Of a stretch of DNA of 64,000 nt, positions 25,090 through 48,058 are shown in pieces (the first letter of the stretch is position 1; every line of letters begins with the position of its first letter). The DNA is taken from contig CAVQTS010000010.1 in the NCBI GenBank assembly GCA_963716465.1, positions 2,657 through 66,656 of the forward strand, in the 5' to 3' direction. Below the pieces are notes generated by a model. That model saw nothing but the letters and a program-made list of their open reading frames with translations, did not search any database and had not been told where the DNA came from. Both the position numbers and the translations under genes were made by a program. Source of the DNA: an uncultured Actinomycetota bacterium (GTDB lineage: Bacteria > Actinomycetota > Actinomycetes > Mycobacteriales > Mycobacteriaceae).

Positions 25090-25153
25090 CAACCGCGCGC
25101 CGAAGGGGGTTGTCGGCGAACGGATTCGTCCTCTCTGAGCAGAAGGCCACAGC

Positions 25154-31745: not shown

Positions 31746-32087
31746 GACGGTGTCGGTAGGCGCGCCGGCGTGTATCCGGCGGGCTAGGGCCGCCTCGGTG
31801 GGGTCAAGGGACGTCGGACGACCAATGGACTGACCGCGGGCGCGGCGGGCCTTGCGGGCTGCGCGCGCCGCGCTCGGACGGTCAAATCATCACCAAGACG
31901 AACCCCGGTATCGCAATCAATGGCTTCCGGGTGGGTGGGGCCGGAAAGTAGGCCCAGCGCCTTGGCGTCTACTCACCGCGCAGCAGCAATACCGTGCGGC
32001 CGTCACGCGGCCCCTCATTCACCCGGGCCATGCGCAAGACGTGTCCGGTCACGGCAGCAGGAGCGCAGTCAGTCCTGGACCCTCGGA

Positions 32088-32462: not shown

Positions 32463-32607
32463 GAGACACGTGCCCTTTCTTCCGATGAGGAATAAGCCGT
32501 CGAGAGTGTGAAGGTAAGTTAACCATCGACGGCGGGATTTTGCGAGTCCAACTAGCAACAGTTTCGAAATATTACCGGTCGAGTAAGTGAGCGAACGCCA
32601 ATCCGCG

Positions 32608-33342
32608 TCAGGTGGAGTTCTCCTGTGAGTAGCTGTTGTTGAGGTTGTCCTGTAGGACGTGCGCGCTGGTCGTGGTGGTGAGGACATCCAGCGGTGCGGA
32701 CAGGGTCCGGACGTCGTATTTCCATCCGGCCGGCAGGGTCAGTCGGGACGCCAGGCCCGGCAGATCGGCTTGCGAGAGTGTGGGGTCCGTCTTCTGGCTC
32801 CAACTCTGCATGACCCAGCGTGTCCCGTTCGGTTCCACCAGTTCGTAGACCTGCTGTCCGGCGTCGAAGGTGAACTCGGCTCCGCGATTCACCGCGTGCG
32901 GGGTGTAGGGCCGCGCCGCCGTCACCGGATTGCCGATGTCCACCGTGGCTTCCTTGCGCATCGCGATCCCGCCGAAGGTCGTGGTTTGGCCCGCCGCACC
33001 GTCCTTGGCGATGGAGTCCATCAGCCAGTACCGCGGTCCATTGAGCACCGCGGTGAGCGCGCCGTTGTCGTCGGCGATCTTGTCGGCATCCAGCGCCGCC
33101 CACTGCGGCTGCGGGCAGTCGTTCAGCCCATAGGAGTTGTACACATCGGCGCTCAACCCGCTCAGGCCCGCGTGGACGAGAAGGACCTCGCAATACCGTT
33201 TGCCCCGCAGGTCGGTGGCCACAACGTGGGTTGTGACCGATGTCGTCGGGGCGGGCGCCGGCCCGGTGCCGCACGCCGCGCCGGTCAGGATCGCCGCGAC
33301 GATCCCCAGGGTCGCGGCGAACCGGTGCCGGTGAGATCTCAT
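32608..33342 (-). CDS. putative lipoprotein of unknown function
   Basis: Signal ending ILTGAAC; globular domain RYCEVLL...NDCP...GPRYWLMD. Confidence 0.7.
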   Translation of the reverse strand: MRSHRHRFAATLGIVAAILTGAACGTGPAPAPTTSVTTHVVATDLRGKRYCEVLLVHAGLSGLSADVYNSYGLNDCPQPQWAALDADKIADDNGALTAVLNGPRYWLMDSIAKDGAAGQTTTFGGIAMRKEATVDIGNPVTAARPYTPHAVNRGAEFTFDAGQQVYELVEPNGTRWVMQSWSQKTDPTLSQADLPGLASRLTLPAGWKYDVRTLSAPLDVLTTTTSAHVLQDNLNNSYSQENST

Positions 33343-33421
33343 GGCGGCAAGTAAAGCACCGCCGGCGATATTATGCGAGTGCGACTAGCAATATCTCCGG
33401 TCGGCCTCTACCCTGTTCGAC

Positions 33422-34070
33422 GTGAGCGCAGAACCCGTTGACGTCAGTGGCGATGTGGGCGTGCAACCGGACGGACGGCGGGCGCGGCGCGAGCGCGGCA
33501 GGCAGGCGGTGGTCGACGCGGCATTCGCGCTGATTCTGGAAGGCAAGATCCCCCCGTCGGCGCAGGATGTTGCCGAGCGGGCCGGGGTGTCGGTCTCCTC
33601 GGTGTTCCGCAACTTCGATGGCCTGGCCGACCTGCAGGGTCAGGCCTTGGATCGATTCCGTTCCCGCTATTCGCATTTCGTCGCCGCCAGGCCCGCACCG
33701 GGTGCGGATCTTGACTCGCGAATCGGATTTCTTTGTGCGCCAACGGGTGAGCCTCTATGGGCAAGCCGGACCGTTGTTGATGCTGGCGCGGACCCGCGCA
33801 TTGGACCACAACACCATGGCAGAGGCGGTCGCCCACAACCGTGCCGCCCTCGCGGCCCAGACGCAAGAGTGCTTCCGGGCCGAAATCGCCTCGCGGACAA
33901 TGACAGCCGCATCAGATCTGGTATCACTGCTGGACGCGCTGACGTCTCCGGAGGCCTTCGAACTGATGACCAGGACCCATGGCCGGTCTGCCCGACAGAT
34001 CACCCGGTCGTGGCGGTTGGGGCTGCGGGAGTTGATCGCCGGGTGGCCACACGTACGGCCACCGCACTAG
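33422..34070 (+). CDS. TetR-family regulator with +1 frameshift at TTT 33728-33730 (error or pseudogene)
   Basis: DGRRARRERGRQAVVDAA...VAERAGVSVSSVFRNF continues in another frame as FFVRQRVSLY...DALTSPEAF; span 649 = 3n+1. Confidence 0.8.
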
Positions 34071-34144
34071 CCGCCGGCGACAGGATCGTCACCGGATGAG
34101 CCCAGCCTTAGATTTCGCGCCGAACGCCTGAGGGGAGACCGTCG

Positions 34145-34789
34145 ATGATGTCCGGGTGGTGGGTGTGGCTGGTGGCGGCCGTGCTCTACGGTGCCTTTCG
34201 ATTGTTCTATGACAACTGGCGTGGCAGGCTGACGCCGGTCGAGATCGAGGCCCTGCTGGCCCAAGCCGAGGCACAGGGCGCGGGCGAGGTGAATGATCTG
34301 TCGATCGTGCGCACCTTCCTCGAAGAAGACGACGGCCGCGAATTCATCATGGTCAATCTGGTCCGGGTGCCCGACACCACGGTCACTGATCCTGACACCG
34401 GGGAACAGGTGCCGGCGCGGGCGATGATGCAGGCCTATTCCAAAGCATTCATGCCGCTGCTGCTGCGACACGGCGGCCATCCGGCGCTGGCGACCCGCAA
34501 AATCGGCGGCTACGTCGATTCCTGGCTGGTGGGCCCCGATCCGGGCTGGAGCATCGTCGGCTTCATGCGCTACCGCTCGCGCCGCGACATGCTCAAGATG
34601 GTGCTCGACCCCGCCTTCGAGGCCGCCCACAAATACAAACCGCTCGGGGTCGCCGAGACCTTCTCCTTCCCGACCCAGCCCTTCCTGCGCACCTACGTCA
34701 GCCCGCGCATCTCGGTGTTCCTGATCCTCGCCCTGGCCGCCGCGCTCGCGCAGTTGGCGATCATCGCCACCACCGGATGTGTTCTGTGA
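34145..34789 (+). CDS. membrane-anchored protein with DUF1330/dimeric alpha-beta barrel-like domain
   Basis: TM at both ends, DDGREFIMVNL, MRYRSRRDML. Confidence 0.6.
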   Translation: MMSGWWVWLVAAVLYGAFRLFYDNWRGRLTPVEIEALLAQAEAQGAGEVNDLSIVRTFLEEDDGREFIMVNLVRVPDTTVTDPDTGEQVPARAMMQAYSKAFMPLLLRHGGHPALATRKIGGYVDSWLVGPDPGWSIVGFMRYRSRRDMLKMVLDPAFEAAHKYKPLGVAETFSFPTQPFLRTYVSPRISVFLILALAAALAQLAIIATTGCVL

Positions 34790-34851
34790 GCACCGGGACC
34801 GCCCCGCTTCATGGTGGGCCGCGCCGGCACGTCGTGTGCGGCGGCGATCTC

Positions 34852-35295
34852 TCAACGACTATGTGACAGCAGTACTTGCAATGTCTCGCGCAAGGCGTCC
34901 AGGCGGTGTTGCCCGAGGATCTCTTGCCACAGGTGTTCGCGATCGACGGCGTTGGAGCGCATCACATGTAGCGCTTGGTGGCCGCGCGGTGTCAATGCGA
35001 TACCCAGAGCCCGCGCGTCCTCGACGTCGGGTGATCGCGCGACGTAGCCGTGCCGTTCCAGCACTTTGACGGCCTGGGCTACGGCTTGTCGGCTGACGCC
35101 GAGCCGGTCGGCGAGTTCGGAGGCATGCAGTGGGCCCGCCGCGAGCGGCACCAGGGCCATCGCCTGTGCTGGGCGAATACCGTCGAGGCCGGCGGCGGCG
35201 AATGCGGCCCGCAGGCCAGGTCCGCCGCCGGCCGCCAGCATCTGCACCAGCGCGGGCACCGTCGGCTGCCACTCTCTATCGGAAACATCGCCCAT
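34852..35295 (-). CDS. MarR-family regulator
   Basis: ASELADRLGVSRQAVAQAVKVLERHGYVARSPDVEDARA...LTPRG. Confidence 0.85.
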   Translation of the reverse strand: MGDVSDREWQPTVPALVQMLAAGGGPGLRAAFAAAGLDGIRPAQAMALVPLAAGPLHASELADRLGVSRQAVAQAVKVLERHGYVARSPDVEDARALGIALTPRGHQALHVMRSNAVDREHLWQEILGQHRLDALRETLQVLLSHSR

Positions 35296-35360
35296 GAATC
35301 ACGAGTCTGTCACCCGCCACCGAATTGACAAGATACTTGTCAAAATTGGTTCGGAGGCCC

Positions 35361-36320
35361 ATGATGGGCGACATGGCCACCCGAGCGATGCAGCTACTTC
35401 TCAGTTGCGTGATGAGCGTCCTCGCCATGCTCATCAGCAGCTGTCTGGGCGGAGGCCATGCCGTCGGTGCCCCATCCCCGCCTGGAGCTATTCCGATCGG
35501 GCAGTCCACCCAGTCGCTGCAGTCCGGCGGCCTGACCCGGACGTTTCATCTGTACCGACCTGACGGTTTGACCGGCGCGGCCCCGTTGGTGGTGATGCTG
35601 CACGGCGGCTACGGCGACGGCGCACAGGCCGAACGGGCCTACCACTGGGACGCAGAAGCCGACACCGGGCATTTTCTGGTTGCCTATCCCGACGGAGTCG
35701 ATCGGGCCTGGAACGCAGGCAGCTGTTGCGGGCGCCCGCAGCGCGCCAACATCGACGATGTGGGCTTCCTGACTGCCATGGTCAGCAGCGTCGAGCAGCA
35801 GCTCCCCATCGACACCACCCGGGTCTACGTCACCGGCATGTCCAACGGCGCCATGATGGCTCTGCGCCTCGGCTGCCAAACCAACCTCTTCGCCGCCATC
35901 GCCCCGGTGGCAGGCACCCTGCTGACCGACTGTTCACAAGCCCAACCCACCTCGGTCCTACAGATCCACGGCACCGCCGATGACCGCGTGCCCTACAACG
36001 GCGGACCAGGCAAAGCCCTCTCGGCGACCGGCGCCCCCAATGTCGATGGGCCCTCGGTGGAATCCGTCAACGCCACCTGGCGTGCCATCAACGGCTGCCC
36101 AGCGCCTACGTCCACCACCAATGGCGACGTGACCACCCAGATCGCGGACTGCCCCGACGGACGCACTGTCGAACTCATCACGATCGCCGGCGCCGGTCAC
36201 CAATGGCCCGGCGGCGTCCCCAGTCCCCTGGCGCAAGACCTCGGAGACCTCCCACCTCCCTCGACAGCACTGAACGCCACCGACACCATCTGGGGCTTCT
36301 TCAGCCAACACCACCGCTGA
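35361..36320 (+). CDS. secreted PHB-depolymerase-type esterase (LpqC/LpqP-like)
   Basis: LVVMLHGG, WNAGSCCG, DDVGFL, VTGMSNGA nucleophile, IHGTADDRVP, GAGHQWPG. Confidence 0.88.
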   Translation: MMGDMATRAMQLLLSCVMSVLAMLISSCLGGGHAVGAPSPPGAIPIGQSTQSLQSGGLTRTFHLYRPDGLTGAAPLVVMLHGGYGDGAQAERAYHWDAEADTGHFLVAYPDGVDRAWNAGSCCGRPQRANIDDVGFLTAMVSSVEQQLPIDTTRVYVTGMSNGAMMALRLGCQTNLFAAIAPVAGTLLTDCSQAQPTSVLQIHGTADDRVPYNGGPGKALSATGAPNVDGPSVESVNATWRAINGCPAPTSTTNGDVTTQIADCPDGRTVELITIAGAGHQWPGGVPSPLAQDLGDLPPPSTALNATDTIWGFFSQHHR

Positions 36321-36432
36321 TAGTCGCCACTGAATGAAAGCGACCCGGGATTGGACGCTGTCGGCATCTACGCTCGGCCTCAGGCGACCTCGTTGTGCCG
36401 GATGATCGCCAACCGGCGTCTTAGACCACATT

Positions 36433-36471
36433 TGCGCCCCCGGCAGGAATCGAACCTGCGACCTAGGGATT
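36433..36471 (-). repeat. att core, left copy: 39-bp 3' half of a tRNA, probably tRNA-Arg(TCT)
   Basis: TGCGCCCCCGGCAGGAATCGAACCTGCGACCTAGGGATT, identical to 42541-42579; its reverse complement has the GGTTCGATTCC T-arm; no 5' half adjoins it. Confidence 0.92.
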
Positions 36472-36729
36472 AACAGATGAGTCTTCATGATGGTTGCCGA
36501 ATGGTGTTGATATCTCCACGTTAGAGGGTATTTTACGTGCGAAAATGAGTTAGCTGACTTCAGTCGATTTTGACCAATTTTCACTCATTTTCGATGAATA
36601 AACGATGGCTCCAAGATGCACGTGTAGGAGTCACGAGCACGGGCGGTCGGTGCTGACCCGTGCAGAGTTCAGCGTCGCTGTCGTGCAGACAGGGGTCTCG
36701 GTTTCAGCGAAGCCCGGGACAAGGGCGCG

Positions 36730-37020
36730 TTACGAACGCTCGGCCAGTTCGCCGTAGCGTTCCTGAGCGGCCTGGCGGCTGGTGCCAAGCATGGCTGCGA
36801 TCTGAGTCCAGGTGTGTCCGTGCACGCGGGCCTCGGCCACCGCATCGGCCAATTCCGCCTGGCTTTTTGCAACAGCGCACACGGCATCGCCGATGCGGCG
36901 CAGCCGACTGGCATCGGCGTCCGGGGAGGCAACACTCGCCGGGTCAAGCGAGTCGAGCCACCGCTCGGCGGCCTCGGCTGCTTGCTGGAGCTGTTCGCGG
37001 GTTCGGGGCATGTCCATCAC
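36730..37020 (-). CDS. putative antitoxin with C-terminal HTH
   Basis: HTWTQIAAMLGTSRQAAQERY; starts 2 bp after the stop of the upstream small gene. Confidence 0.7.
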   Translation of the reverse strand: MMDMPRTREQLQQAAEAAERWLDSLDPASVASPDADASRLRRIGDAVCAVAKSQAELADAVAEARVHGHTWTQIAAMLGTSRQAAQERYGELAERS

Positions 37021-37022
37021 CT

Positions 37023-37244
37023 CTATAAGTGCTCGTAGAACTTGGGGCGGAGCGGCATCGCGTGGATCGCAACGAGTTGTCCGTCGTCATCGAGAACGAC
37101 GACCTCAAGGAGCCGGCCGGTTCGGTCGGCACCGATGTAGAGATCGCGATCGCCCTGGCCCACAACGCGGATGGCGTTGCGGACTGCGTGCTTGATGTCC
37201 TCGTCGTCAACACCGTGCTTGCGGGCGTTGTCGGCGACCTCCAC
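37023..37244 (-). CDS. putative toxin (small RelE/BrnT/DUF4258-like fold)
   Basis: 73 aa, ARKHGVDDEDIKHAV...LYIGADRTGRLLEVVV...AIHAMPLR. Confidence 0.65.
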   Translation of the reverse strand: MEVADNARKHGVDDEDIKHAVRNAIRVVGQGDRDLYIGADRTGRLLEVVVLDDDGQLVAIHAMPLRPKFYEHL

Positions 37245-37248
37245 CTAT

Positions 37249-37289
37249 GCAGGTTATCTTGCCTCCAGTCGCGGTGCAAGTTACCTTGC
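37249..37289. promoter_or_regulatory. paired operators GCA(A/G)G-N4-CTTGC upstream of the toxin gene
   Basis: GCAGGTTATCTTGC (37249-37262) and GCAAGTTACCTTGC (37276-37289). Confidence 0.7.
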
Positions 37290-37446
37290 GGGGTCAGGAA
37301 CGGGACCAGGGGAGTCGTCGTACGGACCGCGGTCGAAGCGTAGGCAGGATCTGAACCCTCCTGGCGGGGGGACCTGCCGGAGGCGGTGCTGGCGACGCGG
37401 CCGTCGTTCGCAGGCTGCGCGAGGCGCTTCCCCAACGGGGCTGCAA

Positions 37447-38104
37447 GCTATTACCAACAGGCTATTACCGCTGGTAACAGGCCTGCTAATAGCGCGCGGC
37501 CCCGACACCCTGCGGGTGTCGGGGCCGCGTCGGGTCTTTGGCCCTTCTCGGGCCAAAGCCCCTCCCCACCCCCAACTTTCCCGCCATAGTGTCGGGGCCG
37601 GGAGGGCGTGCTTTACTCTCACCGCTGCCCCGCCCGCGGGGCAGCGGGCCGGGGTGGGGTGGGTTGCCCCTTTCACCGGTTGGCGGCCTCCTCGCCTACG
37701 GGGTTTGATCTCCGCGGGTGTCCTGATGGCGTGGATTGCAGGCGCCTTGGAGGTTCTCGAGATGGTTGGCATGTCTGCGGTCGACGCTCAGTTTGCGGAC
37801 GGCGACGATCCGGTCAATTTCTTTCGTCGAACAGGTGGCGTTCGGCCAGGGCGTGGGTGGCCGCTTGTCGCTGTGCCTCGGTGCGCAGGTCGTGCTGCAC
37901 AGCAAACGTGTCTCCTTCTGTCATGGCCTGGTACTCCCGGTTGGGGCGGTCCAGTTCCCGCGCCAGCGTTCCTGTCATCCCACCTGATGTTTTGGAGCGA
38001 TTTCTTCGTGCGGGGGGTGGGGAGGTGGGGAAATCCCCACTCAACATATGTACAGTTCAGGATGGTTTTCGAGGGGGTGGGGAGAGGGTGGGGACCCCAC
38101 CCCG
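37447..38104. other. non-coding, structured region; candidate replication origin or packaging region
   Basis: GCTATTACC x2, a perfect 16-bp hairpin at 37495-37529, an 11-bp hairpin at 37622-37647, and two GGGTGGGG-rich repeats at about 38010-38040 and 38072-38100, directly after the helicase-like gene. Confidence 0.55.
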
Positions 38105-38112
38105 GGTGCCGG

Positions 38113-39393
38113 CTAGTTGGATTCCATTCGGTACTTGGGGGCACGGCCTTCCATCTCCTCGCAGCAAACAAGGAATCCTGTGTCGAAGAGGAGATCGAAG
38201 ACGGGTGCGAAGTCCTGCCGGATGGTCGAGTCGCACGCCTGAAGCAGGTCCTTCCTGCTCGCTGCCCCGACCCGCTGGAGCTTTCGGCTGATGGCCTTGG
38301 CGACCCGCTGCTGACGTTCCTCAGTCAGACGTTCGGCGATGATCGCTTCCCTGTCGGCTTGGTTGTGAGCCTTCGCCACGTTTGCATTGCGGCGGCGGTC
38401 ATCTAAGACGAATCGGACGTCGTCACGGGCACGCTTGGACACCGCCAGCAGTTCCCCTCCGATCTTCCAATCGAACTCGTCGATGTCCCGTCGCCCCTCC
38501 AGCAGCGCCAGCCCGAATGCGACCTTCAACCTGGTGAGCATCAGGTGACCGTCAAGCGGGTCGATGTCGGTGGAACCGGTCAGGACGAGGTGGCGGTGGG
38601 CGAGGATCTCGTCGGTGACCGACTCGGGCACCGAGACCAGGTACTCCTCGTCGCAGCCGAAGTCAGGGACGATCACGTCGACCGGAGTCACTGGCTCGGG
38701 TCGGTCGGCCGGGGCGTACGGGTCGATCGTTGGCACCCACAGGAATCGTTGCGGGAACCCGTCCTTCTCCCGGTCGAGGAAGAAATCGCAGTTCTCCGGT
38801 TGGGAACTGATCCCCAAGCAGAGGCGATACGAGTGGGCCGGGACCGCGGTGGTGGTCTCCTTCTGCGCGTTGTGAAAGCCCAACGGTTGTCCCATGTAGG
38901 CCTTCAAAAGCTCCCCGGCCAGCGTGGCACCCTGGCGGCCCGCCAGCGCGGCCAGTGTTGAGACCTCGGGCACGGTCAGGTGCGCCCGCATCATGCCCGG
39001 CTGGTTCTTGGAGCCCTTGAAAAGTCGGGCCAATCCTTCCCCGGTGCCGATACTCGGGCGTTCGGCGTCAAGGGGTATCCCGCCCTCGCCGGGGAAGGAC
39101 ACAGCCGAGAAGCCGGCCGCGTCAGCGGCGTCCTTACCCTGTCCAGATCGGCCCACGGCGACAGTGTTCAGGTTGACCGAAACCGCGCCACCAACGATCG
39201 GCGGCAGCTTCACCTTCGGGTCAACACAGGAGATCGCCCGCCGCAGAACACAACCCAGTACCGGGTAGGGTGCGACCGATCGGGATCGGGCGAATCGGTG
39301 GATGTGGATGAGGATGTCCCGTTGGGTCCAGAACCCGATATCGGGGTCGGACTCCTCGGCACTCATCGGTTCGACGGTGCTGGCATCGATCAC
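38113..39393 (-). CDS. replication protein, putative helicase (DUF3987-like P-loop)
   Basis: VAVGRSGQGK Walker-A-like motif, EVSTL, YRLCLGISSQP, GFPQRFLW; overlaps the primase-polymerase gene. Confidence 0.7.
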   Translation of the reverse strand: MIDASTVEPMSAEESDPDIGFWTQRDILIHIHRFARSRSVAPYPVLGCVLRRAISCVDPKVKLPPIVGGAVSVNLNTVAVGRSGQGKDAADAAGFSAVSFPGEGGIPLDAERPSIGTGEGLARLFKGSKNQPGMMRAHLTVPEVSTLAALAGRQGATLAGELLKAYMGQPLGFHNAQKETTTAVPAHSYRLCLGISSQPENCDFFLDREKDGFPQRFLWVPTIDPYAPADRPEPVTPVDVIVPDFGCDEEYLVSVPESVTDEILAHRHLVLTGSTDIDPLDGHLMLTRLKVAFGLALLEGRRDIDEFDWKIGGELLAVSKRARDDVRFVLDDRRRNANVAKAHNQADREAIIAERLTEERQQRVAKAISRKLQRVGAASRKDLLQACDSTIRQDFAPVFDLLFDTGFLVCCEEMEGRAPKYRMESN

Positions 39394-40463
39394 GGAATCT
39401 CCTGCAGTCGTAATGCTCTGGCGGCAGCAGACATATCTCCCCCATGGTTCAGGACTGCGTACGCGCGGAATTTCGTGTAGCCCTTAGGGTTATCGGGCTC
39501 GGTGGCCTCGAAGTCGGTCGATGTTGAGTAGACGAACAGGCAGCCGTTCCGGACCGTGGCCGAACAGCTCGACGTCGCGGCCGGGTGCAGCCACACCGCA
39601 CCATCCGACTCTGGGTCGTTCGTGACGCAGCGCCAGCCGCGCGGCTGCAGGATCGACGCCCAGGTGCTGGTGGCGCAGAAGTCTTCGGCGATCGACCGGC
39701 CCCAAGTGTGGACGCTGACCAGTCGGCGCGTCGACCTTGGGGCGGCTTTGACCGTTTCGAGGCACAACAGATTCACCAGCCATGCGGGAGGCGTGGCGAC
39801 CGGCCCCTCAACCCGCGTGTAGCGGTTACCGGTATCGGGGTGGATCGACGGCGGACCCACGACATAGCCGGTCGAGGTCTTGATCTCGATGCCCTTGGGC
39901 AGCTTCATGACCGACAGCTCCCCGTGCGGCCGCCGGAAGTACAGATGCCGTCCACCGGTGGCGCGGCCGGTGACCGTGGTCAACGTCTCGGGCAAGGTGC
40001 CGTACCGGTTCTCCATCGCCCTTAGGGCGTCAAGGTTGTCGACGTCAAGGACGAACATTGACTCAGGCACCCTGATCCCGATATTGCAGCCGGCCCACTG
40101 TCTGCCCCACCACGAGGCGACCGTGCGGATGTCGGTCGTGGCGTCGTAGAGGCCGTGGCCGAACTGCCCGCACTCGCCGCGGCAGTTCTTCCTCTCCTTG
40201 CTGCCCTCCGGGTGGGGGCTGGCGATCACGGGGCACTTTCCCCGCAGAGGGAAGACCGGCCACTTGTTCGCCGCGTACTCGACCGCGTAGGTGCCGATGC
40301 CGCTGGCGGCCGACTGGGCGCGGAGAAGTTCCTCACCTTCCCGCTGCTGTGCCACGATGGCTTTAGACCTGCTCTCCCGGATGGATGGTTGGTTGAACGG
40401 CTCCCGGCTCGGTGGTGGTGCATCGAGGACATCGGGGGCCGTTTTCTCATGCCGCATCACCAC
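39390..40463 (-). CDS. bifunctional DNA primase/polymerase (Prim-Pol)
   Basis: WPVFPL, ATTD...WW...NIGI, VLDVD, TGRATGGRHLYF, GYVVGPPSIHPDTG.Y. Confidence 0.9.
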   Translation of the reverse strand: MVMRHEKTAPDVLDAPPPSREPFNQPSIRESRSKAIVAQQREGEELLRAQSAASGIGTYAVEYAANKWPVFPLRGKCPVIASPHPEGSKERKNCRGECGQFGHGLYDATTDIRTVASWWGRQWAGCNIGIRVPESMFVLDVDNLDALRAMENRYGTLPETLTTVTGRATGGRHLYFRRPHGELSVMKLPKGIEIKTSTGYVVGPPSIHPDTGNRYTRVEGPVATPPAWLVNLLCLETVKAAPRSTRRLVSVHTWGRSIAEDFCATSTWASILQPRGWRCVTNDPESDGAVWLHPAATSSCSATVRNGCLFVYSTSTDFEATEPDNPKGYTKFRAYAVLNHGGDMSAAARALRLQEIP

Positions 40464-40716
40464 CGGTGAACTGGGCGTTCTCCCACGCGATCACGTCGGA
40501 CAGCCGGTAGCGGACGTGCCGGCCGAAGCGGGCATAACGCGGCCCCACGCCGTGGTGTGCCCACTGGTCAAGGGTCGACTTCCTCACCTTCAGCCGTTCA
40601 GCGACCTCAAGGCGCGTTAGCCACTCGTCAACCAGGGGAGCGAAATGTGGGTCAGAGCCACACTTAAGACCGTTAATTGATTCCATGTCGGCAACCGTAG
40701 GGTCCACTCGCGACAC
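40447..40716 (-). CDS. excisionase / AlpA-like HTH DNA-binding protein
   Basis: WLTRLEVAERLKVRKSTLDQWAHHGVGPRYARFGRHVRYRLSDVIAW. Confidence 0.9.
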   Translation of the reverse strand: MSRVDPTVADMESINGLKCGSDPHFAPLVDEWLTRLEVAERLKVRKSTLDQWAHHGVGPRYARFGRHVRYRLSDVIAWENAQFTGGDAA

Positions 40717-40759
40717 TTCTCAAGAGGGATGCGTTAGTTCGAAGAGAATGCATTAGATT

Positions 40760-41338
40760 TTGCGTGTGTCACACACATCGATGTCTTGGGACGAGCAGGT
40801 CGTCAAGCGGATCGCCTCTCAAATACGCGCGCTGCGAACAGCAGAGGGCATCTCGGCGCAAGGACTGGCCGACAGGATCACCGAACTGGGGCACGCGATG
40901 TCCCGATCGACACTGGCCGACATTGAGAACGGCCGGCGGAAGTACATCACCGTCACCGAGCTGATGATGCTCGCTAGGGCTTTGAACACCGCCCCGATTC
41001 TGCTGATCTACCCCGGCCCCTACGGAGACGCCACCGAGGTTCTCCCCAACATCAACTTCACTCAGATGCAGGCGCTCAAGTGGTTCACGGGAGACTTGAC
41101 GGGTTCCGCCGATGCCGCTATTTACGGCGAGGCTAGGTCCGACGACCGCGACATCTACCAGTCCACTGTCCGCCGGCAGCGCTTGGAGATGGCGCTCTGG
41201 GACCTCGAAGAAAAGCAGGCCGCCATGGAGGAGCTGATCCGCCGTCTTCGACCGGGTGACGAGTCGACGATCAAAGCCATCGAAGAATCCGTCGAGATGG
41301 CCCGGACGATCGAGAGTTACAAGCTGTATGGCGGGTAG
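40760..41338 (+). CDS. XRE-family repressor; start may be 40781
   Basis: IRALRTAEGISAQGLADR...MSRSTLADIENGRR. Confidence 0.85.
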   Translation: MRVSHTSMSWDEQVVKRIASQIRALRTAEGISAQGLADRITELGHAMSRSTLADIENGRRKYITVTELMMLARALNTAPILLIYPGPYGDATEVLPNINFTQMQALKWFTGDLTGSADAAIYGEARSDDRDIYQSTVRRQRLEMALWDLEEKQAAMEELIRRLRPGDESTIKAIEESVEMARTIESYKLYGG

Positions 41339-42494
41339 ACCACCACTGAGGATCGGGCACCACGGGAAGATCACCCGGATCCAGGTGGCCGATGGAATGT
41401 GGTTGGCGCGGTGCCGATTCCGCGACTCTGACGGAATCACCCGTATCGTGGAGCGTCGAGGCCCGCCGGGGGACCAGCACGGCAAGCTCGCCGAGGATGT
41501 TCTGGTCGCCGCACTGGCTGACCGTCGGCCCCCAGGGGTCGACCAGATCAGACTGGACACCCCGGTGATGACGTTGGTCGGCATGCACATCGAACGTCTT
41601 GCCCAGGACGGCAGGTCAATCCGCACTCTCGACACCTACCGTTACGACTCCGAGAAGCTCAAGAAATTTCTCGCCGGGGTGCGGGTGGGGGAGTCCACCA
41701 CGGCCCGCATCGATGCCGCCCTGCGATCCATGCGCGCCAGCCATGGCTCGACCATGGCCCGAAGATCCCGCACAGTCCTACGCGGAGCCCTCCAGCTGGC
41801 GGTCCTTAACAACGTTCTCGGTTCCAATCCCGTCCGCGATGTCCAGATGATCCGGTCGAAGGCAAGGCCCAAGGGTGCGGCCGCGCTGACCGCCGACGAA
41901 TTAGGAGCGCTCCTCGACAAACTCCGCGCCTCCGAGGTGTGCCGCAAGCATGACCTTGTCGACCCGATCACCATCCTGATGGCAACCGGCCTGCGCAGGT
42001 CGGAGCTGCTGGCCCTGCGCTGGACTGACTTCAGTCCGACGGCTCGCACACTGACGGTGCGCGCCAAGGTGGTGCGGCAGAAGGGTGAAGGGTTGAAGCT
42101 GGTCGAGGAACCCAAGACCGCAGCCGGATGCCGAACAATCCCGTTGCCGCCCTTCGCAATCCGCACATTAACCGAACGCCGCAAGCTGCCCTACCTCGGC
42201 GAGCAGAAGGTTATCTTTCCGTCGACCGCCGGAACCCTGCGGGACCCGGACAACTTCGGCTCCCAATGGCGGGAAGCCCGCGACGAGTTGGGTGTGCCCG
42301 ACGTCTCATCACATTCGTTCCGCAAAAGCCTCGCTACGTTGATCGATTCGGCCGGCCTGTCAGCCCGGATCGGGGCCGATCACCTGGGCCACGCCAAGGT
42401 GTCGATGACGCAGGACCGCTACATGGCCAGGGGCCGCGTGCATTCCGAAGTGGCCGAGGTGGTGGAGCGGTCGATCATCAAAAACGATGAATAA
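41328..42494 (+). CDS. tyrosine integrase
   Basis: ATGLRRSELLAL (R), KTAAG (K), HSFRKSLAT (HxxR), LGHAKVSMTQDRY (H, Y); ends 46 bp before the att repeat. Confidence 0.95.
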   Translation: MAGRPPLRIGHHGKITRIQVADGMWLARCRFRDSDGITRIVERRGPPGDQHGKLAEDVLVAALADRRPPGVDQIRLDTPVMTLVGMHIERLAQDGRSIRTLDTYRYDSEKLKKFLAGVRVGESTTARIDAALRSMRASHGSTMARRSRTVLRGALQLAVLNNVLGSNPVRDVQMIRSKARPKGAAALTADELGALLDKLRASEVCRKHDLVDPITILMATGLRRSELLALRWTDFSPTARTLTVRAKVVRQKGEGLKLVEEPKTAAGCRTIPLPPFAIRTLTERRKLPYLGEQKVIFPSTAGTLRDPDNFGSQWREARDELGVPDVSSHSFRKSLATLIDSAGLSARIGADHLGHAKVSMTQDRYMARGRVHSEVAEVVERSIIKNDE

Positions 42495-42540
42495 ACGATG
42501 GATCGGTACTAGAGAAACATAACATAAATAGGCCCTGAGC

Positions 42541-42579
42541 TGCGCCCCCGGCAGGAATCGAACCTGCGACCTAGGGATT
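42541..42579 (-). repeat. att core, right copy of the 39-bp tRNA 3' half
   Basis: Identical to 36433-36471; flanked by non-tRNA sequence. Confidence 0.92.
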
Positions 42580-42757
42580 TGTGATTTCGGGTGCCGACGA
42601 GTTCCGGAAAAGTGCTTGTTTGTGCTGGTAGAGGGCAGTTTTGGTTTCCGGGTGATGGGGTCTCGAACCGGCTGAATCCGGTCGATTCTTGGTCATTAGC
42701 ACCGAATAAACGGCAACGCGGTTCGAGGCAAATGCGGGCTGGAATATCGGCAGCTGT

Positions 42758-43036
42758 TCATTGCGTCCGGTAGGCGTCTGCGCGGCTGAATACACCCACG
42801 ACCGTGACGCGTCGGTGCTCGTCGTCTATGCGGTAGATCACGCGGTACGTTCCCCGTCGGGCACTGTGGCGATCCTCCAGTGGCGGCCGCAATCGTTTGC
42901 CGACCCGATGTGGGTTGTCCAGCAGTGGTCCCGTGATGAACTCATACGCGGCGAACGCCACTGCCTCCGGTAGGACTTCGGCCAGCTGTCGCCTCACGAT
43001 CGGGGCGATGACCAATTTGTATCGCTGGTCGGTCAC
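42758..43036 (-). CDS. relE: RelE-family toxin
   Basis: GPLLDNPHRVGKRL...HSARRGTYRVIYRIDD, close to mycobacterial RelE/RelG. Confidence 0.9.
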   Translation of the reverse strand: MTDQRYKLVIAPIVRRQLAEVLPEAVAFAAYEFITGPLLDNPHRVGKRLRPPLEDRHSARRGTYRVIYRIDDEHRRVTVVGVFSRADAYRTQ

Positions 43037-43323
43037 TTTCCGGCTCGACGAGCTTGCATCGCCGCGGCGAGATCGTCCTCGTTCTCGCCTTCGCCTCTGG
43101 CCAATTCAGCGTCAGCCTCGCTCAGTGCGCGCAGCGCAGCAGAGTCGGACAGGATCGCAATGGTCTCCTCGAGTGACTCCAGATCGTCGACAGCGATAAG
43201 GACCGCGGTGGGGCGCCCATGGACCGTGACGGTGATCCGTTCGTGTTGCTCTCCGACCCTAGCGACCAACTCAGAGAGGTGGGCTTTTGTTTCAGCGAGT
43301 GAGCTGATTTCAGTCATGGTCAT
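43033..43323 (-). CDS. relB: Phd/YefM-family antitoxin (RelB/RelF-like)
   Basis: SLAETKAHLSELV...ITVTVHGRPTAVLI..DDLESLEET; an ATGGTCAT-N4-ATGACCAT palindrome (43316-43335) overlaps the start. Confidence 0.9.
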   Translation of the reverse strand: MTMTEISSLAETKAHLSELVARVGEQHERITVTVHGRPTAVLIAVDDLESLEETIAILSDSAALRALSEADAELARGEGENEDDLAAAMQARRAGK

Positions 43324-43473
43324 AAGTATGACCATAAATTAGGTCCTTGTCCAAGCTCTTCAGGACGGGGTTGATCGGTCTCATTTCGCGAAAAAGTGTG
43401 CAGTCCGCGTGGTCGGAACCTGGGTCAAAGCGTCGAAACCCTCTCGCCGGTGCTGGGGTTATGCCGCGTCAAC

Positions 43474-43500
43474 TGAAGTCAACCGCTCCTATTGACTTCA
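43474..43500. promoter_or_regulatory. inverted repeat TGAAGTCAA-N9-TTGACTTCA upstream of fic
   Basis: Perfect 9-bp arms; an extra AACTGAAGT copy at 43512-43520. Confidence 0.6.
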
Positions 43501-43532: not shown

Positions 43533-44705
43533 GTGACTTCACTTCGTCCGATCGCCTACGAGGACGTTCGTTGGGAACCGCAAGGCGGGCGCCACGCGAG
43601 CCAGGCGCGAGCTCGGTACGGCACCTATCACCCCGCCGTGCCGGCCAGCATTGCGGACCTGGCCCTCGATTTGTCACCGTCGGTGCTGGCTGATGCTGAG
43701 TCCGCCAGTCGCGAGATCGCACGTTTCGACGCCGAACTAGGCGGCGAGATCGCACCATTTGCTTCAGTGTTGCTGCGGTCGGAATCCGCCGCGAGCTCGC
43801 AGATCGAAAACTTGACCGCATCGGCGCGCGCGATCGGCGAGGCCGAGTTGCCCGGTGGCAAGGCAAAGCGCAACGCGGAGGTGATCGTCGCCAACACAGC
43901 CGCGATGCAAGCAGCGGTCGCTCTGTCCGACACCGTTGATGCCGACGCAATTCTGGCGATGCACCGCGCGCTGATGGTGAACGAGCCACGCCATACGCCA
44001 GGTGAATTCCGCACCGAGCCGGTGTGGATCGGCGGTGGCTCCACACCGATCGGTGCGACGTTTGTCGGCCCGCGCCACGAGTTGATCCCTGGAGCGATCG
44101 CCGACCTGATCGATTTCGCGCAGCGCACTGACCTTCCCGCGCTACCGCAGATCGCACTCGGCCACGCCCAGTTCGAGACCATTCACCCCTTCACCGACGG
44201 CAACGGCCGTACGGGCCGCGCACTGGTACAAGCGATGCTGCGCAACAAAGGCCTCACCCGTCAGGTCACGGTGCCAGTCTCCGCCGGGCTGCTGGCCGAC
44301 ACCGGCGCATACTTTGCTGCCTTGACGAACTATCGCGACGGTGACGCCGCGCCGATTGTCGAGCGCTTCTCGCAGGCCACTGTCTTGGCTATCGCCAATG
44401 GGCGGCAACTGGTCACCGATATCCGTGATATCCGGGAGACCTGGAACGGTGTGATCACCGCGCGGTCTGACTCGGCGGTGTGGAAGGTCGCCGATTTGTT
44501 GACCCGCCGTCCAGTCGTCAACGCCGTACTCGTAGGCCAGGAACTAGGTATCGAGTCCACAAACGCACACCGCTATCTCAACCCGCTCACCGAGGCGGGA
44601 ATCCTCATCGAGTCAACCAATGGACCCCGTAACCGAGTGTGGCGTTCTCCGGAAGTACTTGCCGCGCTGGACGCTTTCGCCGAACGCGCCGGCCGGCGAG
44701 GCTGA
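43533..44705 (+). CDS. fic: Fic-domain protein with N-terminal inhibitory motif and C-terminal wHTH
   Basis: HPFTDGNGRTGR canonical motif; SSQIEN matches (S/T)xxxE(G/N). Confidence 0.92.
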   Translation: MTSLRPIAYEDVRWEPQGGRHASQARARYGTYHPAVPASIADLALDLSPSVLADAESASREIARFDAELGGEIAPFASVLLRSESAASSQIENLTASARAIGEAELPGGKAKRNAEVIVANTAAMQAAVALSDTVDADAILAMHRALMVNEPRHTPGEFRTEPVWIGGGSTPIGATFVGPRHELIPGAIADLIDFAQRTDLPALPQIALGHAQFETIHPFTDGNGRTGRALVQAMLRNKGLTRQVTVPVSAGLLADTGAYFAALTNYRDGDAAPIVERFSQATVLAIANGRQLVTDIRDIRETWNGVITARSDSAVWKVADLLTRRPVVNAVLVGQELGIESTNAHRYLNPLTEAGILIESTNGPRNRVWRSPEVLAALDAFAERAGRRG

Positions 44706-44820
44706 TCGATCGTCATATCGCGCCTCTCCATCCGCGCCGCGCGGCGCGGATGGAAGTCCGATGGTGGAGGCGGCCCCCGGCTGTCGGGATTGCTATTGCC
44801 ACTGAAGCGCTCGAACCCCT

Positions 44821-45055
44821 TTCCCTTCAATCTTTCAGGCTCATTCATCTCATCAACCCCCTATACACTCCCGGCAATCCCCGACATCTCCTCATCAATC
44901 TCACTCCATACCAAAACCATTGCACCACTACATCTCTCACTGAATCAGCACCCAAGAATCTGTTGGCACATTGGCACAAGGATGTGCAACACTGGTTCCA
45001 GCCGCGCGGGGCGCGTCTGGAACCCGAGTCCTCAAGTCGCCCAGTGGTGTTGAGG
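44821..45055. other. candidate oriT region
   Basis: G-poor tract, TTGGCACA x2, a 14-bp stem with one mismatch (44994-45024) and CCTCAA/TTGAGG arms, all directly upstream of the relaxase. Confidence 0.5.
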
Positions 45056-45076
45056 CTTGTGGAGGTGGTTGGGTCG

Positions 45077-48058
45077 GTGTTGACGATTTCGCGGTTGCGT
45101 CGCTGGAGTATCGACTATTACAACCGCACCGCCGATCAAGCCCGGCGGTCGGCGATGGATCGTCAGGCCGCCAATGGCGGGTTGGGGGAGTACTACGCCG
45201 AGGCTGATACCCGCACCCCGACGTGGGTGCTGGCCGGCGATGTCGCGGCGGTGGCAGCCTTGACCGGTCTGGACGGCGCCGCGGTCGCGGGCGGGTTCGC
45301 CGACACCACCCAGGTGGCGCGCTGGCTCGATGACGGCGTCGCCCCCAACGGGGCCAGCGGGCGCGGGTTCGGGCGGGAGTCGGTGCACGGTTTTGATCTG
45401 GTGTTCGCCGCCCCGAAGAGTGTGTCGCTGGTGCGGGCGCTGTCCGCCGATGGTGTGAATGAGAAGGCGGTCGCCCAAGCTCATGCGATCGCGGTCGGGG
45501 CGGCGATGACCTATCTGGCTGAGCATGCCGGCTACACCCGGGTGCACAACCCGGTGACCGGGATGAAGGATTTGCAGCGGCTTCCCGGTCTGGTCGGCAT
45601 CGCCTATCAGCACGAAACCAGCCGGTGCGGTGATCCGCACCTGCACACCCACCTGATCGTGCCCAACCGCCAGCCCCGCGCCGACGGCGTGCTGGTGGCC
45701 CTTGATTCCAAGTCGCTGTATCACGAGGCCAAAGCGGCCGGGGTGATCTATCAGGCGGTGCTGCGCCACGAACTGCATGCTGCGCGCGCCATGGAGTGGG
45801 AGCCGGTCGATCCGCACTCGGGGATGGCCGAGATCGCCGGGGTCACCACCGAGTGCATCACCGCCTATTCGCGGCGTTCCACCCAGTTGCGGGACTGGGC
45901 AGCTAACCGGCTGGTCGTGGTCGACGGGGCGCCCACGGCCGCCCAGTTGGCGGCAGCGCAGAAAGCCACCCGCCCGGTCAAACCCGAATCACTGTCGTGG
46001 GAGCAGCTCACCGAGGGCTGGCGTGCTGAGGGGCGCGGCCTGCAGATCGACCCCGAAGCCCACTACCGCGCCCGCACCGCCCGCCAATCCATGCCACCCA
46101 CGTTCCGCGACCACAACGTTCACCAGGCCAGTGACCAGTCAGTGTCACCCACTTTCGGTCAGTCACTTTCACCCACTTCCGGTGGCTGGTCAGTTCCACC
46201 CACTTCTGGTCAGTCAGCTCCACCCGGTTCGGGCGGGTGGTCGGTGTCACCCACTGTCGGTCAGATGGCCGGGCGGATCGGCAAGGCGGTGTTCACCCGC
46301 GCGGACATGGTGGAACTGATCGGCGCCCAGCTACCGGTGGACGCCCACGGTGATCCGCGCAGGCTGATCGAACGTGCGGTGGATGCGGTCAGTGTGCGGG
46401 TATCGGGCCCGCGGGAGGCCCATCACCGCGAAGGCCACGTCACGTACACGGTGGCGGCGGTGATCGCCGAAGAGGAACAGATCCTGGGCATGCTCGACAC
46501 CACCGAGGGTGGCTCCCAGTTGTGGCCCAAACCCGAGGACCTGGCCGGGTTGTCGGCAGGCCAAGCGCGCGCGGTCGCCGCGATCGCCGCCTCGACCCAT
46601 CTGGTGCAGCCGCTGCAAGCCCCGGCCGGGGCCGGCAAGACCCACTCCCTGCAGGCCCTGCGCGCGGGCGCCCACCGGGCGGGTAAGGACGTTGTGGTGG
46701 TGGCCCCGACCGGTAAGGCTGTTGATGAGGCGATGCGCGGCGGGGCGGGGGACCGCGGCCTGACGGTGGCCAAAGCGCTGCACCTGCTTGACACCGAGCG
46801 GTTGGCGTTCACCCGCGCCAGCGTGGTCATCGTGGACGAGGCCTCCATGCTGGCCACCCCGGACCTGGGCAGACTGCTGGCCCACGCCACTGTGGGGCGG
46901 GCGAAGATGGTGCTGGTCGGGGACCCCTATCAGCTGGCCCCGGTGCGGGCCCGCGGCGGGATGTTCGAGCAGCTGTGCACCGAGCTGCCCTGGGCGCAGC
47001 GCCTCGGTGAGGTGTGGCGGATGCATGACCCCGCCGAACGCCACGCCTCCCTGGCCCTGCGCTGCGCGCGCGGCAACCCTCTGCGCACCGCGGTCGGCTG
47101 GTATCGCACCCAGGGCCGGCTACACACCGGGGATCCCGTCGCGATGGCCGCCGATGCCCGCGACGCCTACCGGACCGCCCACGCCGACGGCGCGGACGTC
47201 GCCATCCTCTGCGACACCTGGGAGATGGCCGATGCCATCAACCGCCAACTGCACGACACCTACACCCAAGCCGGCGCCCCGAGCGTGCCCGCCGCCCGGG
47301 GCCAGCAGCTGCGGCGCGCCGACCTGATCATCACCCGCCACAACGACACCAGCGTCCAGGTGATGCCCGGCCCGGACCACACACCCAACCAGCACATTGA
47401 CCAAGTCCGCAACGGCAACCGGTGGCGGGTGGTCGGCGTCGACGAAACCTCCGGGCGCATCGGCGCCGAACGGATCAGCGACCGGGCCAGGGCCGTCTTC
47501 GGTGCCGAGTATGTGCGCGAGCACATCACCTGGGGCTACGCCACCACGGTGCACTCCGCCCAGGGCATCACCATCGGCACCAGCCGCCGCCGCGGGGTGT
47601 GCTGGTCGATCCTGTCCACCCACGCCACCCGGGCCATGGCCTACGTCGCGGCCACCCGCGCCACCGACGACAACCACCTCGCCCTCTACCAACCCAATTC
47701 GGGTGAAGCCGACCACGACCACACCCCGCCGACCGGCGACACCCTGCACATCGCGCACCGCGGCACCACATACACCGCCGCCCACCACCTGCACACGATC
47801 TTGGGCAACGACGACCGGCCCCACACCCTGCACACCGAAGCCGAACACACCGAACGCCACCACCTGCCCGCCGAGGTCGCCGAGGCCCTCAACCGCAACA
47901 ACGAGCGCCGCACCGCCCGCCGCGCCACCTGGCGCCACGACAAAGCCCGCGAACGCGCCCACGCCCAGGCCTACGAACAGATGGTCAACCGATTCCACAG
48001 CGCCGAACAGTCACGCGAGCAGGGCCGGGCCCAAGAGGCCGACGGCCTAGAATTGTGA
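45077..48058 (+). CDS. MobF (TrwC-type) relaxase-helicase
   Basis: MLTISRLRRWSIDYY, GEYY, HETSRCGDPHLHTH (HUH), QAPAGAGKT, IVDEASM, VGDPYQL, GYATTVHSAQG. Confidence 0.93.
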   Translation: MLTISRLRRWSIDYYNRTADQARRSAMDRQAANGGLGEYYAEADTRTPTWVLAGDVAAVAALTGLDGAAVAGGFADTTQVARWLDDGVAPNGASGRGFGRESVHGFDLVFAAPKSVSLVRALSADGVNEKAVAQAHAIAVGAAMTYLAEHAGYTRVHNPVTGMKDLQRLPGLVGIAYQHETSRCGDPHLHTHLIVPNRQPRADGVLVALDSKSLYHEAKAAGVIYQAVLRHELHAARAMEWEPVDPHSGMAEIAGVTTECITAYSRRSTQLRDWAANRLVVVDGAPTAAQLAAAQKATRPVKPESLSWEQLTEGWRAEGRGLQIDPEAHYRARTARQSMPPTFRDHNVHQASDQSVSPTFGQSLSPTSGGWSVPPTSGQSAPPGSGGWSVSPTVGQMAGRIGKAVFTRADMVELIGAQLPVDAHGDPRRLIERAVDAVSVRVSGPREAHHREGHVTYTVAAVIAEEEQILGMLDTTEGGSQLWPKPEDLAGLSAGQARAVAAIAASTHLVQPLQAPAGAGKTHSLQALRAGAHRAGKDVVVVAPTGKAVDEAMRGGAGDRGLTVAKALHLLDTERLAFTRASVVIVDEASMLATPDLGRLLAHATVGRAKMVLVGDPYQLAPVRARGGMFEQLCTELPWAQRLGEVWRMHDPAERHASLALRCARGNPLRTAVGWYRTQGRLHTGDPVAMAADARDAYRTAHADGADVAILCDTWEMADAINRQLHDTYTQAGAPSVPAARGQQLRRADLIITRHNDTSVQVMPGPDHTPNQHIDQVRNGNRWRVVGVDETSGRIGAERISDRARAVFGAEYVREHITWGYATTVHSAQGITIGTSRRRGVCWSILSTHATRAMAYVAATRATDDNHLALYQPNSGEADHDHTPPTGDTLHIAHRGTTYTAAHHLHTILGNDDRPHTLHTEAEHTERHHLPAEVAEALNRNNERRTARRATWRHDKARERAHAQAYEQMVNRFHSAEQSREQGRAQEADGLEL
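46136..46261 (+). repeat. five in-frame 24/27-bp tandem units inside the relaxase gene
   Basis: Units start at 46136, 46160, 46187, 46211, 46238; core (T/C)CACCCACT. Confidence 0.88.

Follow-up and report, generated by a model that had tools for sequence, protein, structure and literature searches.

How can an integrated element that encodes neither a virus shell nor a mating apparatus be copied and passed on between cells? The question is raised by a 64-kb stretch of DNA (the window, to which all coordinates without a contig name refer) on contig C10 of the source genome G000, an uncultured member of Mycobacteriaceae. Here, an element of 6.1 kb (36433-42579) with no virus-shell or mating genes is bracketed by exact 39-bp direct repeats. 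We propose, tentatively and with slightly less than even confidence, that it is a complete and intact integrative-replicative element that depends on a helper and is, in actinobacteria, the counterpart of the PICMIs (phage-inducible chromosomal minimalist islands) of Vibrionaceae. From what is established for its protein families and from its anatomy, we infer excision and replication; i.e., the 6.1-kb element probably excises and copies itself. A helper would be needed for its spread because it lacks transfer genes of its own.

Anatomy of the 6.1-kb element

The two repeats, spaced 6108 bp apart, correspond to the 3' part of a tRNA-Arg(TCT) gene, beginning in the anticodon loop and running through the acceptor end, on the minus strand, and could be identified as such because an intact gene was found elsewhere in the genome. 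A 31-mer of the repeat occurs twice in the window, versus 0.00 occurrences expected from shuffled sequences. The exact 39-bp attachment (att) repeats described in a first-pass annotation, made from the sequence alone, are present, with the correction that both are orphan tRNA 3' segments and that the only intact tRNA-Arg(TCT) gene of the genome lies on contig C14. An intact tRNA at the element ends was considered and rejected, as the bases flanking each repeat copy complete no cloverleaf. ARAGORN recovered no whole tRNA at either repeat, its only prediction in the window being a tRNA-His at 2775, and Rfam searches of the 30- to 50-kb part of the window returned nothing credible, with no family at the repeats. 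The motif GAATAAACG, found three times in the window versus 0.06 expected, marks candidate arm-type integrase sites (Table 1), and the two that belong to the element appear to be intact.

Table 1. Features of the element and its immediate right flank, in window coordinates
Feature	Coordinates	Strand	Remarks
Distal att (attR)	36433-36471	-	Orphan 39-bp 3' segment of tRNA-Arg(TCT); low-coordinate side abuts chromosomal DNA
Candidate arm-type integrase site, P arm	36592-36611	+	GAATAAACG at 36596-36604, 125 bp from core
Helix-turn-helix (HTH) protein, 96 aa, putative antitoxin/autoregulator	36730-37020	-	phrog_686, E 7.7e-11
BrnT-like toxin, 73 aa	37023-37244	-	phrog_17063 "toxin," E 3.6e-7; Pfam BrnT_toxin, E 0.005, below cutoff
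Two GCAAG-N4-C(T/C)TGC palindromes, putative operators	37249-37289	-	27 bp apart, upstream of toxin gene
GC-rich hairpin stack	37400-37700	-	Perfect 12-bp arms, 37622-37647; imperfect 27-nt arms, 37518-37576; perfect 16-bp arms, 37495-37529
Predicted origin of replication (ori)	38005-38108	-	Two GTGGGG-N-CCCCAC palindromes plus half-site CCCCACCCCC, directly 3' of helicase stop
DUF3987 replicative helicase, 426 aa	38113-39393	-	Predicted MCM-like AAA+ fold, C-terminal winged-helix-like domain
Prim-Pol (archaeo-eukaryotic primase [AEP] superfamily primase-polymerase)	39390-40463	-	PF09250, E 5e-34; phrog_5852, E 7e-34
Excisionase/AlpA-type HTH_17 protein (Xis)	40447-40716	-	PF12728, E 8e-9; TIGR01764 "excise," E 3.6e-7
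XRE family regulator, putative master repressor	40760-41338	+	PF01381, E 7e-8; phrog_3 repressor
Tyrosine integrase (Int), 388 aa	41328-42494	+	Phage_integrase PF00589, E 1e-15; phrog_1, E 6.5e-50
Candidate arm-type site, P' arm	42485-42504	+	GAATAAACG at 42489-42497, overlaps integrase stop, ~40 bp before core
Proximal att	42541-42579	-	Orphan 39-bp tRNA-Arg(TCT) 3' segment, common to distal end of neighboring relaxase island
Distal P arm of neighboring integrative and mobilizable element (IME), outside the 6.1-kb element	42580-42712	+	Own GAATAAACG site 125 bp from core

Matches to Pfam and PHROG families bore out the intact-looking integrase and repressor of the first-pass annotation. The integrase start is placed at the ATG at 41328 (not at 41256), where the alignments of homologs begin, and its translation shows the residues expected for catalysis (R, K, HxxR, H, and Y). 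The XRE gene, which has the same position in relatives, overlaps the integrase start by 11 nt and is divergent from the gene for the HTH_17/excisionase protein, whose true start is probably the ATG at 40686 because homologs of 64 to 71 aa align from residue 30. The stop of the Prim-Pol gene, in turn, overlaps the start of the helicase gene. All of these backbone open reading frames (ORFs) are full length relative to their homologs, and the divergent xis/prim-pol/helicase-like operon is recovered as an HTH_17 protein, a Prim-Pol, and a DUF3987 protein with an MCM-like fold.

The last of these proteins matches Pfam DUF3987 (PF13148) with an E value of 2.9e-5 and 23.9 bits, below the 27-bit cutoff, and its homologs carry PF13148. 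It also matches the C-terminal two thirds of PHROG "DNA polymerase/primase" families (E 7e-43), and an alignment of 20 homologs revealed an invariant Walker A motif (GxSGxGK), with a Walker B motif also present. The best 50 PDB matches of its AlphaFold model (pLDDT 88.7) are all MCM helicase subunits (Foldseek E about 1e-6, TM about 0.4). Sequence searches of the PDB with the helicase profile and with the Prim-Pol gave no meaningful match. For a DUF3987 protein encoded beside a PrimPol on an integrase-bearing island, 5'-3' helicase activity and an interaction with this PrimPol have been demonstrated biochemically, and the family has been placed in superfamily 6 (PMC11724360). Because of the PHROG match, the invariant Walker A motif, the modeled MCM fold, and the published DUF3987 activity, we consider the label "helicase-like" justified for the 426-aa protein.

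A comparison of the 330 nt downstream of the helicase gene in 15 loci with the same backbone uncovered a recurrent layout, namely, a palindrome plus half-site, a spacer of 17 to 32 nt, and a repeat of the first unit. This was seen in all but one of the 15 loci, the fifteenth (L037) having no clear layout of this kind after its helicase gene. In the element studied here, the two copies of palindrome plus half-site are 60 bp apart and flank a 32-nt spacer that is richer in A+T. The repeat sequence differs element by element, and the second copy is mirrored in most relatives and direct in the 6.1-kb element. A conserved layout filled with element-specific repeats has the look of an origin read by an element-specific initiator. 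The first-pass description of an int-repressor/xis-pri-rep-ori order is therefore upheld, its ori being backed by 14 relatives. This family-wide layout, with its element-specific palindromes after the helicase gene, constitutes a testable origin and specificity determinant and might also be put to use in mycobacterial genetics as a compact replicon.

Genes of the relatives begin about 130 bp after the helicase gene, where the 6.1-kb element instead has a noncoding stretch of 0.87 kb that has no homolog in 400 genomes of the genus and matches no Rfam family. The structured noncoding block noted earlier is real in that the minus strand of 37400-37700 folds with a z score of -6.9 relative to shuffled sequences; its hairpin stack probably represents terminators or an insulator between the rep operon and the adjacent toxin/HTH cassette.

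This cassette is the sole cargo of the element. The 73-aa protein shares 38 to 47% identity with proteins of Gordonia and Mycobacterium phages that bear a BrnT-like toxin annotation, and its partner is an HTH protein, unlike BrnA, which is of the ribbon-helix-helix (RHH) type. A cassette of 560 bp that includes the palindromes (the match extends to about 37289) occurs alone and in varied contexts in 10 of the 400 genus genomes, at 69 to 92% nucleotide identity (79 to 91% in the five with the whole cassette), and the toxin gene is frameshifted in several of these 10 copies. The pair thus appears to be a self-contained toxin-antitoxin (TA)-type module that was acquired by the element. Its first-pass designation as a TA pair stands to the extent that two genes are kept as a unit and one has a PHROG "toxin" match; it has to be qualified in that the Pfam BrnT match is below the cutoff and the partner belongs to the HTH and not the RHH class.

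Capsid, terminase, and transfer genes had been reported as missing, and we concur: no Pfam or PHROG match to any of them was found in the element, and tblastn searches of 36000-43500 with the large terminase (TerL), portal, capsid, HNH, and small terminase (TerS) proteins of relatives yielded no match. DNA likeness of the whole element to phages or plasmids was also considered and set aside, only short pieces of the Prim-Pol and integrase genes being matched.

Relatives of the backbone and known satellites

Homologs of the helicase number in the hundreds in Mycobacteriaceae and Nocardiaceae, and 25 loci were surveyed. Across these, the int/XRE/xis/Prim-Pol/helicase/ori backbone is constant and adjoins intact genes for tRNA-Ala, tRNA-Arg (CCT, CCG, or ACG), tRNA-Gly, tRNA-Pro, tRNA-Ser, or tmRNA. 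Where a distal repeat was found, the elements measure 7.4 to 12.5 kb. The helicase is 58 to 72% and the Prim-Pol 46 to 59% identical to those of capsid-encoding Mycobacteriaceae elements with the same gene order, the closest helicase relatives being L035 (72%, from a metagenome), L038 (70%), and L036 (69%).

What follows the ori differs from locus to locus. An HNH-TerL-portal-capsid series is present in L035 and in Mycobacterium shinjukuense (L030) and is decayed, with a split TerL, portal, or capsid gene, in L036 and L056. A capsid gene alone is found in L048, L050, and L052, and HNH occurs with a TerS or TerL-like gene in L034 and L038 (in L038, a TerL-like ORF) and with genes of no assigned function in L032 and L047. 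Other loci have no head gene at all and encode instead type I restriction-modification systems (L044 and L045), GmrSD (L046), an Mrr-helicase fusion (L042), DUF499/DUF1156 proteins (L037), or other genes (L039-L043 and L049). In all, about half of the sampled relatives are without detectable packaging genes. Judging by this comparison, Mycobacteriaceae seem to use the int-xis-PrimPol-DUF3987-ori chassis as a general platform for head genes, defense systems, or almost nothing. The 6.1-kb element is a stripped-down, capsid-less variant within a known family of mycobacterial satellite-like elements. As a separate observation, the slot after the ori, which holds head genes in some relatives, behaves as a hot spot for defense cargo.

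The first-pass annotation had described the element as resembling the phage-inducible chromosomal islands (PICIs), whose functional definition turns on a helper phage for induction, replication, and packaging. It fails the published PICI model. The SatelliteFinder model for PICIs requires at least four of five components (PMC10085698). The element has three (integrase, AlpA/Stl-Str-type regulator, and primase-replicase), and the model would not call it; its small terminase component has no Pfam or PHROG match in the element and no tblastn match with the TerS of L034 as the query, and the capsid/capsid morphogenesis component likewise has no match. Candidate PICIs of mycobacteria have been defined by an integrase plus a major capsid gene (PMC10654092), and the capsid-bearing members so called have been equated with phiRv1/phiRv2 (PMC10654092; PMC10085698). 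As there is no major capsid gene in 36433-42579, the element falls outside this phiRv2-type definition too. Like the element, the phiRv2-type candidate PICIs are tRNA integrated and combine a tyrosine integrase, a regulator, xis, and Prim-Pol plus a rep protein, a likeness that is drawn from the comparison with L030 and L035. However, they are about 10 kb long and encode HNH, TerL, portal, and capsid proteins, whereas the element has none of these and is 4 kb shorter. The earlier statement that known mycobacterial satellites encode capsid and terminase agrees with these data, since the kin include capsid-encoding elements of the published phiRv2-type layout. Both survey rules, i.e., integrase plus capsid and at least four of five PICI components, miss elements like the present one.

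A functional look-alike is the PICMI. PICMI115, at 6,110 bp, encodes just an integrase, AlpA, a primase/helicase of the DUF3987 type, and some small proteins, is devoid of capsid-remodeling and terminase genes, and is the precedent for a minimal satellite that relies wholly on its helper; for PICMIs of Vibrionaceae, both helper dependence and the filling of helper capsids with concatemers have been shown by experiment (PMC10803314). The genes of the PICMI model are an integrase, AlpA (PF05930 or PF12728), and a primase (DUF3987 PF13148 or DUF5906); in the element, PF00589 and PF12728 are matched above the cutoff and PF13148 below it (E 2.9e-5). It is nevertheless no member of the PICMI group, as PICMIs integrate beside fis and the element lies at core copies of tRNA-Arg(TCT). 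Moreover, PICMIs have no separate Prim-Pol or XRE repressor, both of which are present here, and they come from a different phylum; at most, the element may work like a PICMI. A further parallel is offered by AgaPP/AgaPH, where adjacent PrimPol and DUF3987 helicase genes are also found on a tRNA-integrated, integrase-bearing element, one rich in defense cargo (PMC11724360). That island differs in its Bacteroidota host, in the PriCT domain of its helicase, and in its cargo, a long-B Argonaute. If minimal members such as the 6.1-kb element are transferred, actinobacterial satellites have been undercounted, and the minimal satellite gene set argued for PICMIs would hold outside Vibrionaceae.

Proposed working and the case for a stranded remnant

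On the PICMI-like reading, the XRE regulator would keep the divergent xis-primpol-helicase operon off. On derepression, Int and Xis would recombine the 39-bp cores via the arm sites ~40 and 125 bp away to release a 6.1-kb circle, which the Prim-Pol and the MCM-like helicase would copy, starting at the iterons that lie directly 3' of the helicase gene, and the TA cassette would favor retention. Spread between cells would then use a helper, most likely by the filling of phage or satellite capsids with concatemers as in PICMIs, a route that is favored by the phage affinities of the backbone and its kin. A second route, suggested by the relaxase island that lies in tandem with the element, would be coexcision and cotransfer with that neighbor.

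Metagenomic data offer some signs of activity. A copy of the helicase gene in a Joint Genome Institute (JGI) metagenome is 99.6% identical, with five synonymous changes and no nonsynonymous change, a pattern that by our estimate would arise by chance about once in a thousand if approximately a quarter of random changes are synonymous. A contig from a European Nucleotide Archive (ENA) metagenome (L084) is 99.4% identical from the start codon of the helicase gene onward, across the noncoding block, the TA pair, and the P arm, and its end falls within the att core. The first 624 bases of this contig are unlike anything in the source genome and could reflect either a chimeric assembly or a variant in which the Prim-Pol side has been replaced. 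A seemingly diverged ori in the tail of another metagenome contig (L085) was rejected, as the alignment revealed low-quality, error-laden sequence.

Several results weigh against the PICMI-like reading. Neither the exact attP junction nor the P-arm/core junction was matched in the JGI metagenome contigs. No pac or cos site, terS, or capsid interference gene was identified in the element. The genome has no match to TerL_ATPase (PF03354) and therefore no obvious resident helper, and a TraG/VirD4-type coupling protein (PF12696) was not found in it either. The 6.1-kb lineage was not found in the 400 genus genomes, in which only the TA cassette was matched. Finally, the closest helicase relatives (L035, L036, and L038) carry head or packaging genes, which makes the loss of a packaging module plausible. 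With regard to phage-like genes elsewhere in the genome, a second small phage-like element, devoid of Prim-Pol and DUF3987 genes, was noticed at about 118300-125200 on contig C13 (L090). It contains the only Phage_capsid (PF05065) match of the genome (C13:118328-119146, in an open frame of 545 aa), a TerS-like ORF (C13:120783-121097), and an integrase gene (C13:124536-125141) and is a possible PICI-like neighbor or helper candidate.

The loss of a packaging module is the starting point of the likeliest alternative, though an unlikely one, in which a phiRv2-type satellite that encoded a capsid was stripped of that module, gained the TA cassette, and became stranded. Excision and replication might persist in such a remnant, with no movement between cells, and it would be kept by the TA cassette and vertical descent. 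That the nearest helicase relatives have HNH-TerL-portal-capsid genes, that decaying copies with a split TerL, portal, or capsid gene are on record in L036 and L056, and that the lineage is rare all fit this scenario, as do the independence of the TA cassette, which is found alone elsewhere, and the 0.87 kb of noncoding DNA where relatives have genes. Against it, in tblastn searches of 36000-43500 with 90 proteins of seven relatives, only the backbone was matched and no residual likeness to any late gene was found (all E > 0.1). The state of the element also argues against stranding, as the att cores are exact, the arm sites appear intact, the five backbone genes are intact, and the changes in the helicase gene are only synonymous; furthermore, packaging-less members of the family with defense cargo recur. 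The first-pass annotation had proposed relatives as a test for a deletion remnant, and this test gives an ambiguous answer: the three closest relatives do have head or packaging genes, but no gene remnant was found here, and about half of the sampled members are without such genes and have defense cargo in their place.

Tandem array at tRNA-Arg(TCT)

The part of the window that lies right of 42579 codes for ParE/Phd, Fic, and a TrwC relaxase (44639-48058). Beside the intact tRNA-Arg(TCT) gene on contig C14 lie genes for a paralogous integrase and a paralogous Xis whose products are 70 and 61% identical, respectively, to those of the element. The complete genome G010 has, after the same tRNA gene, genes for an integrase 91% identical (amino acids) to that on C14, a TrwC relaxase, and a Fic protein, the Fic gene being 87% identical to that of the window. 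At a distance of 19.5 kb from the tRNA gene, its 3' end recurs as an orphan copy, with a homolog of 42580-42720 before it; this island is without the 6.1-kb passenger. On account of this gene order and orphan fragment, we take the ParE/Phd-Fic-TrwC region to be the distal part of a tRNA-Arg-integrating IME, which in the source genome runs off contig C10 and resumes from the end of C14.

The left side of the locus can be placed with the help of G016, the closest relative sampled, in which homologs of 24408-31750 lie ~3 kb from an intact tRNA-Arg(TCT) gene in the predicted orientation and which puts both the upstream flank of C14 and the left part of the window beside this same gene. The GAATAAACG offsets agree with this placement, as the motif recurs at equivalent distances in the relaxase island, beside the C14 tRNA gene, and at either end of the G010 island. 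The order that follows from the synteny with G010 and G016 starts with the chromosome (to 36432) and a first att fragment, continues with the 6.1-kb element and a second att fragment, and closes with the relaxase island (ParE/Phd, Fic, TrwC ... xis, int) and the intact tRNA gene. The att core and arm-type sites used by the relaxase island are those of the element, which comes second, distal to the island. The relaxase island, named as a possible mobilizer in the first-pass annotation, is a partner element at the shared att site. A search for an empty site near the esterase gene in relatives found genomes without a tRNA gene there. Contigs C10, C14, and C17 could not be joined, as their ends fall in paralogous segments of 88 to 90% identity. 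The tandem arrangement documents tRNA-Arg(TCT) as a hot spot for the accumulation of elements whose integrases are related.

Streptococci provide a precedent for such piling up in the site-specific accretion of integrative and conjugative elements and IMEs with cis-mobilizable elements, in which two elements whose recombination modules are related share a single att site in tandem and one of the two is without transfer genes. Relative to that system, the partner here has a relaxase only, in place of a full conjugation module, and the passenger itself encodes an integrase and replication proteins. Transposed to the present locus, accretion would be the main mode of spread: the intact tRNA gene would recombine with the fragment at 36433, the island and element would leave as one circle, TrwC would nick it, and the machinery of a conjugative plasmid would export it. 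We regard this cis-mobilized passenger as rather unlikely. The direct tandem with a shared core, the likeness of the integrases and Xis proteins, the arm sites at identical offsets, and the TrwC gene itself are in its favor, and tandem AICEs (integrative and conjugative elements of actinomycetes) are on record in one Arg-tRNA gene of Streptomyces avermitilis, an arrangement like the one seen here (PMC2440964). However, genes for a coupling protein or a mating pore were not found, with no PF12696 match in the genome and with FtsK-type (PF01580) matches confined to chromosomal FtsK and ESX EccC contexts, none of them in or near the element. The passenger is, moreover, missing from the G010 island, and the kin of the backbone are phage-like, not conjugative.

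A composite reading, in which a mycobacterial PICMI counterpart has two helper routes, seems improbable to us. Concatemers would be packaged in capsids of a temperate or virulent actinophage or of a phiRv2-type satellite, the latter making the element a satellite of a satellite, or else the element would be comobilized by conjugation, an alternative that is entertained because its att core and arm sites are common with the relaxase island. Least probable by far, and rejected, is descent from a pMEA-type AICE by loss of its FtsK-like Tra and spread genes: pMEA300-type AICEs, with int/xis at a tRNA gene, Prim-pol, and Rep, do resemble the element and replicate as a circle, and a relationship between RepAM of pMEA300 and a phiRv2 protein has been reported (PMC2440964), but AICEs carry FtsK/SpoIIIE-type Tra, spd, and kor genes, of which the element carries none, and no examined relative has such a Tra gene beside the backbone.

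Several minor observations concern the array and its surroundings. The contig ends coincide with paralogous segments of 3 to 4.4 kb and 88 to 90% identity (G000:C10:1-2986, C14:157027-160009, and C24:155256-158239), which carry genes for an MmyB-like regulator, also found at 48499-49000 in the window, and an aldo-keto reductase. A third paralogous integrase gene, truncated at its 5' end, occupies the end of contig C17 (25347-26113), and its product is 68% identical to residues 184 to 383 of the window integrase. Its stop is overlapped by the same CGATGAATAAACGATGGAT site, the contig breaks off 37 nt farther on, exactly where an att core would start, and the sequence just upstream of the gene resembles 31763-31871 of the window; this contig end is probably another piece of the tRNA-Arg array. 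In G016, chromosomal homology ends at the equivalent of 31750, and a 27-nt orphan tRNA-Arg fragment follows 55 nt on, then a 3-kb insert and the intact tRNA gene. The 4.7 kb at 31751-36432 of the window, with the esterase gene and its neighbors, may therefore be an older, decayed insertion. In G010, ParE/Phd (G010:C1:4298352-4299338; L028, 18212-19338) is located outside the island, beyond the orphan fragment, whereas in the window it is found within the island, ahead of the fragment. There is also a duplication of about 50 bp of arm sequence, and the arrangement suggests a remnant of an older element end in G010. The TrwC gene (44964-48058) has a second copy of 95% identity at G000:C2:101578-104672 with an Xis-like gene just upstream (C2:101120-101314), which suggests a second relaxase island in the genome, on contig C2.

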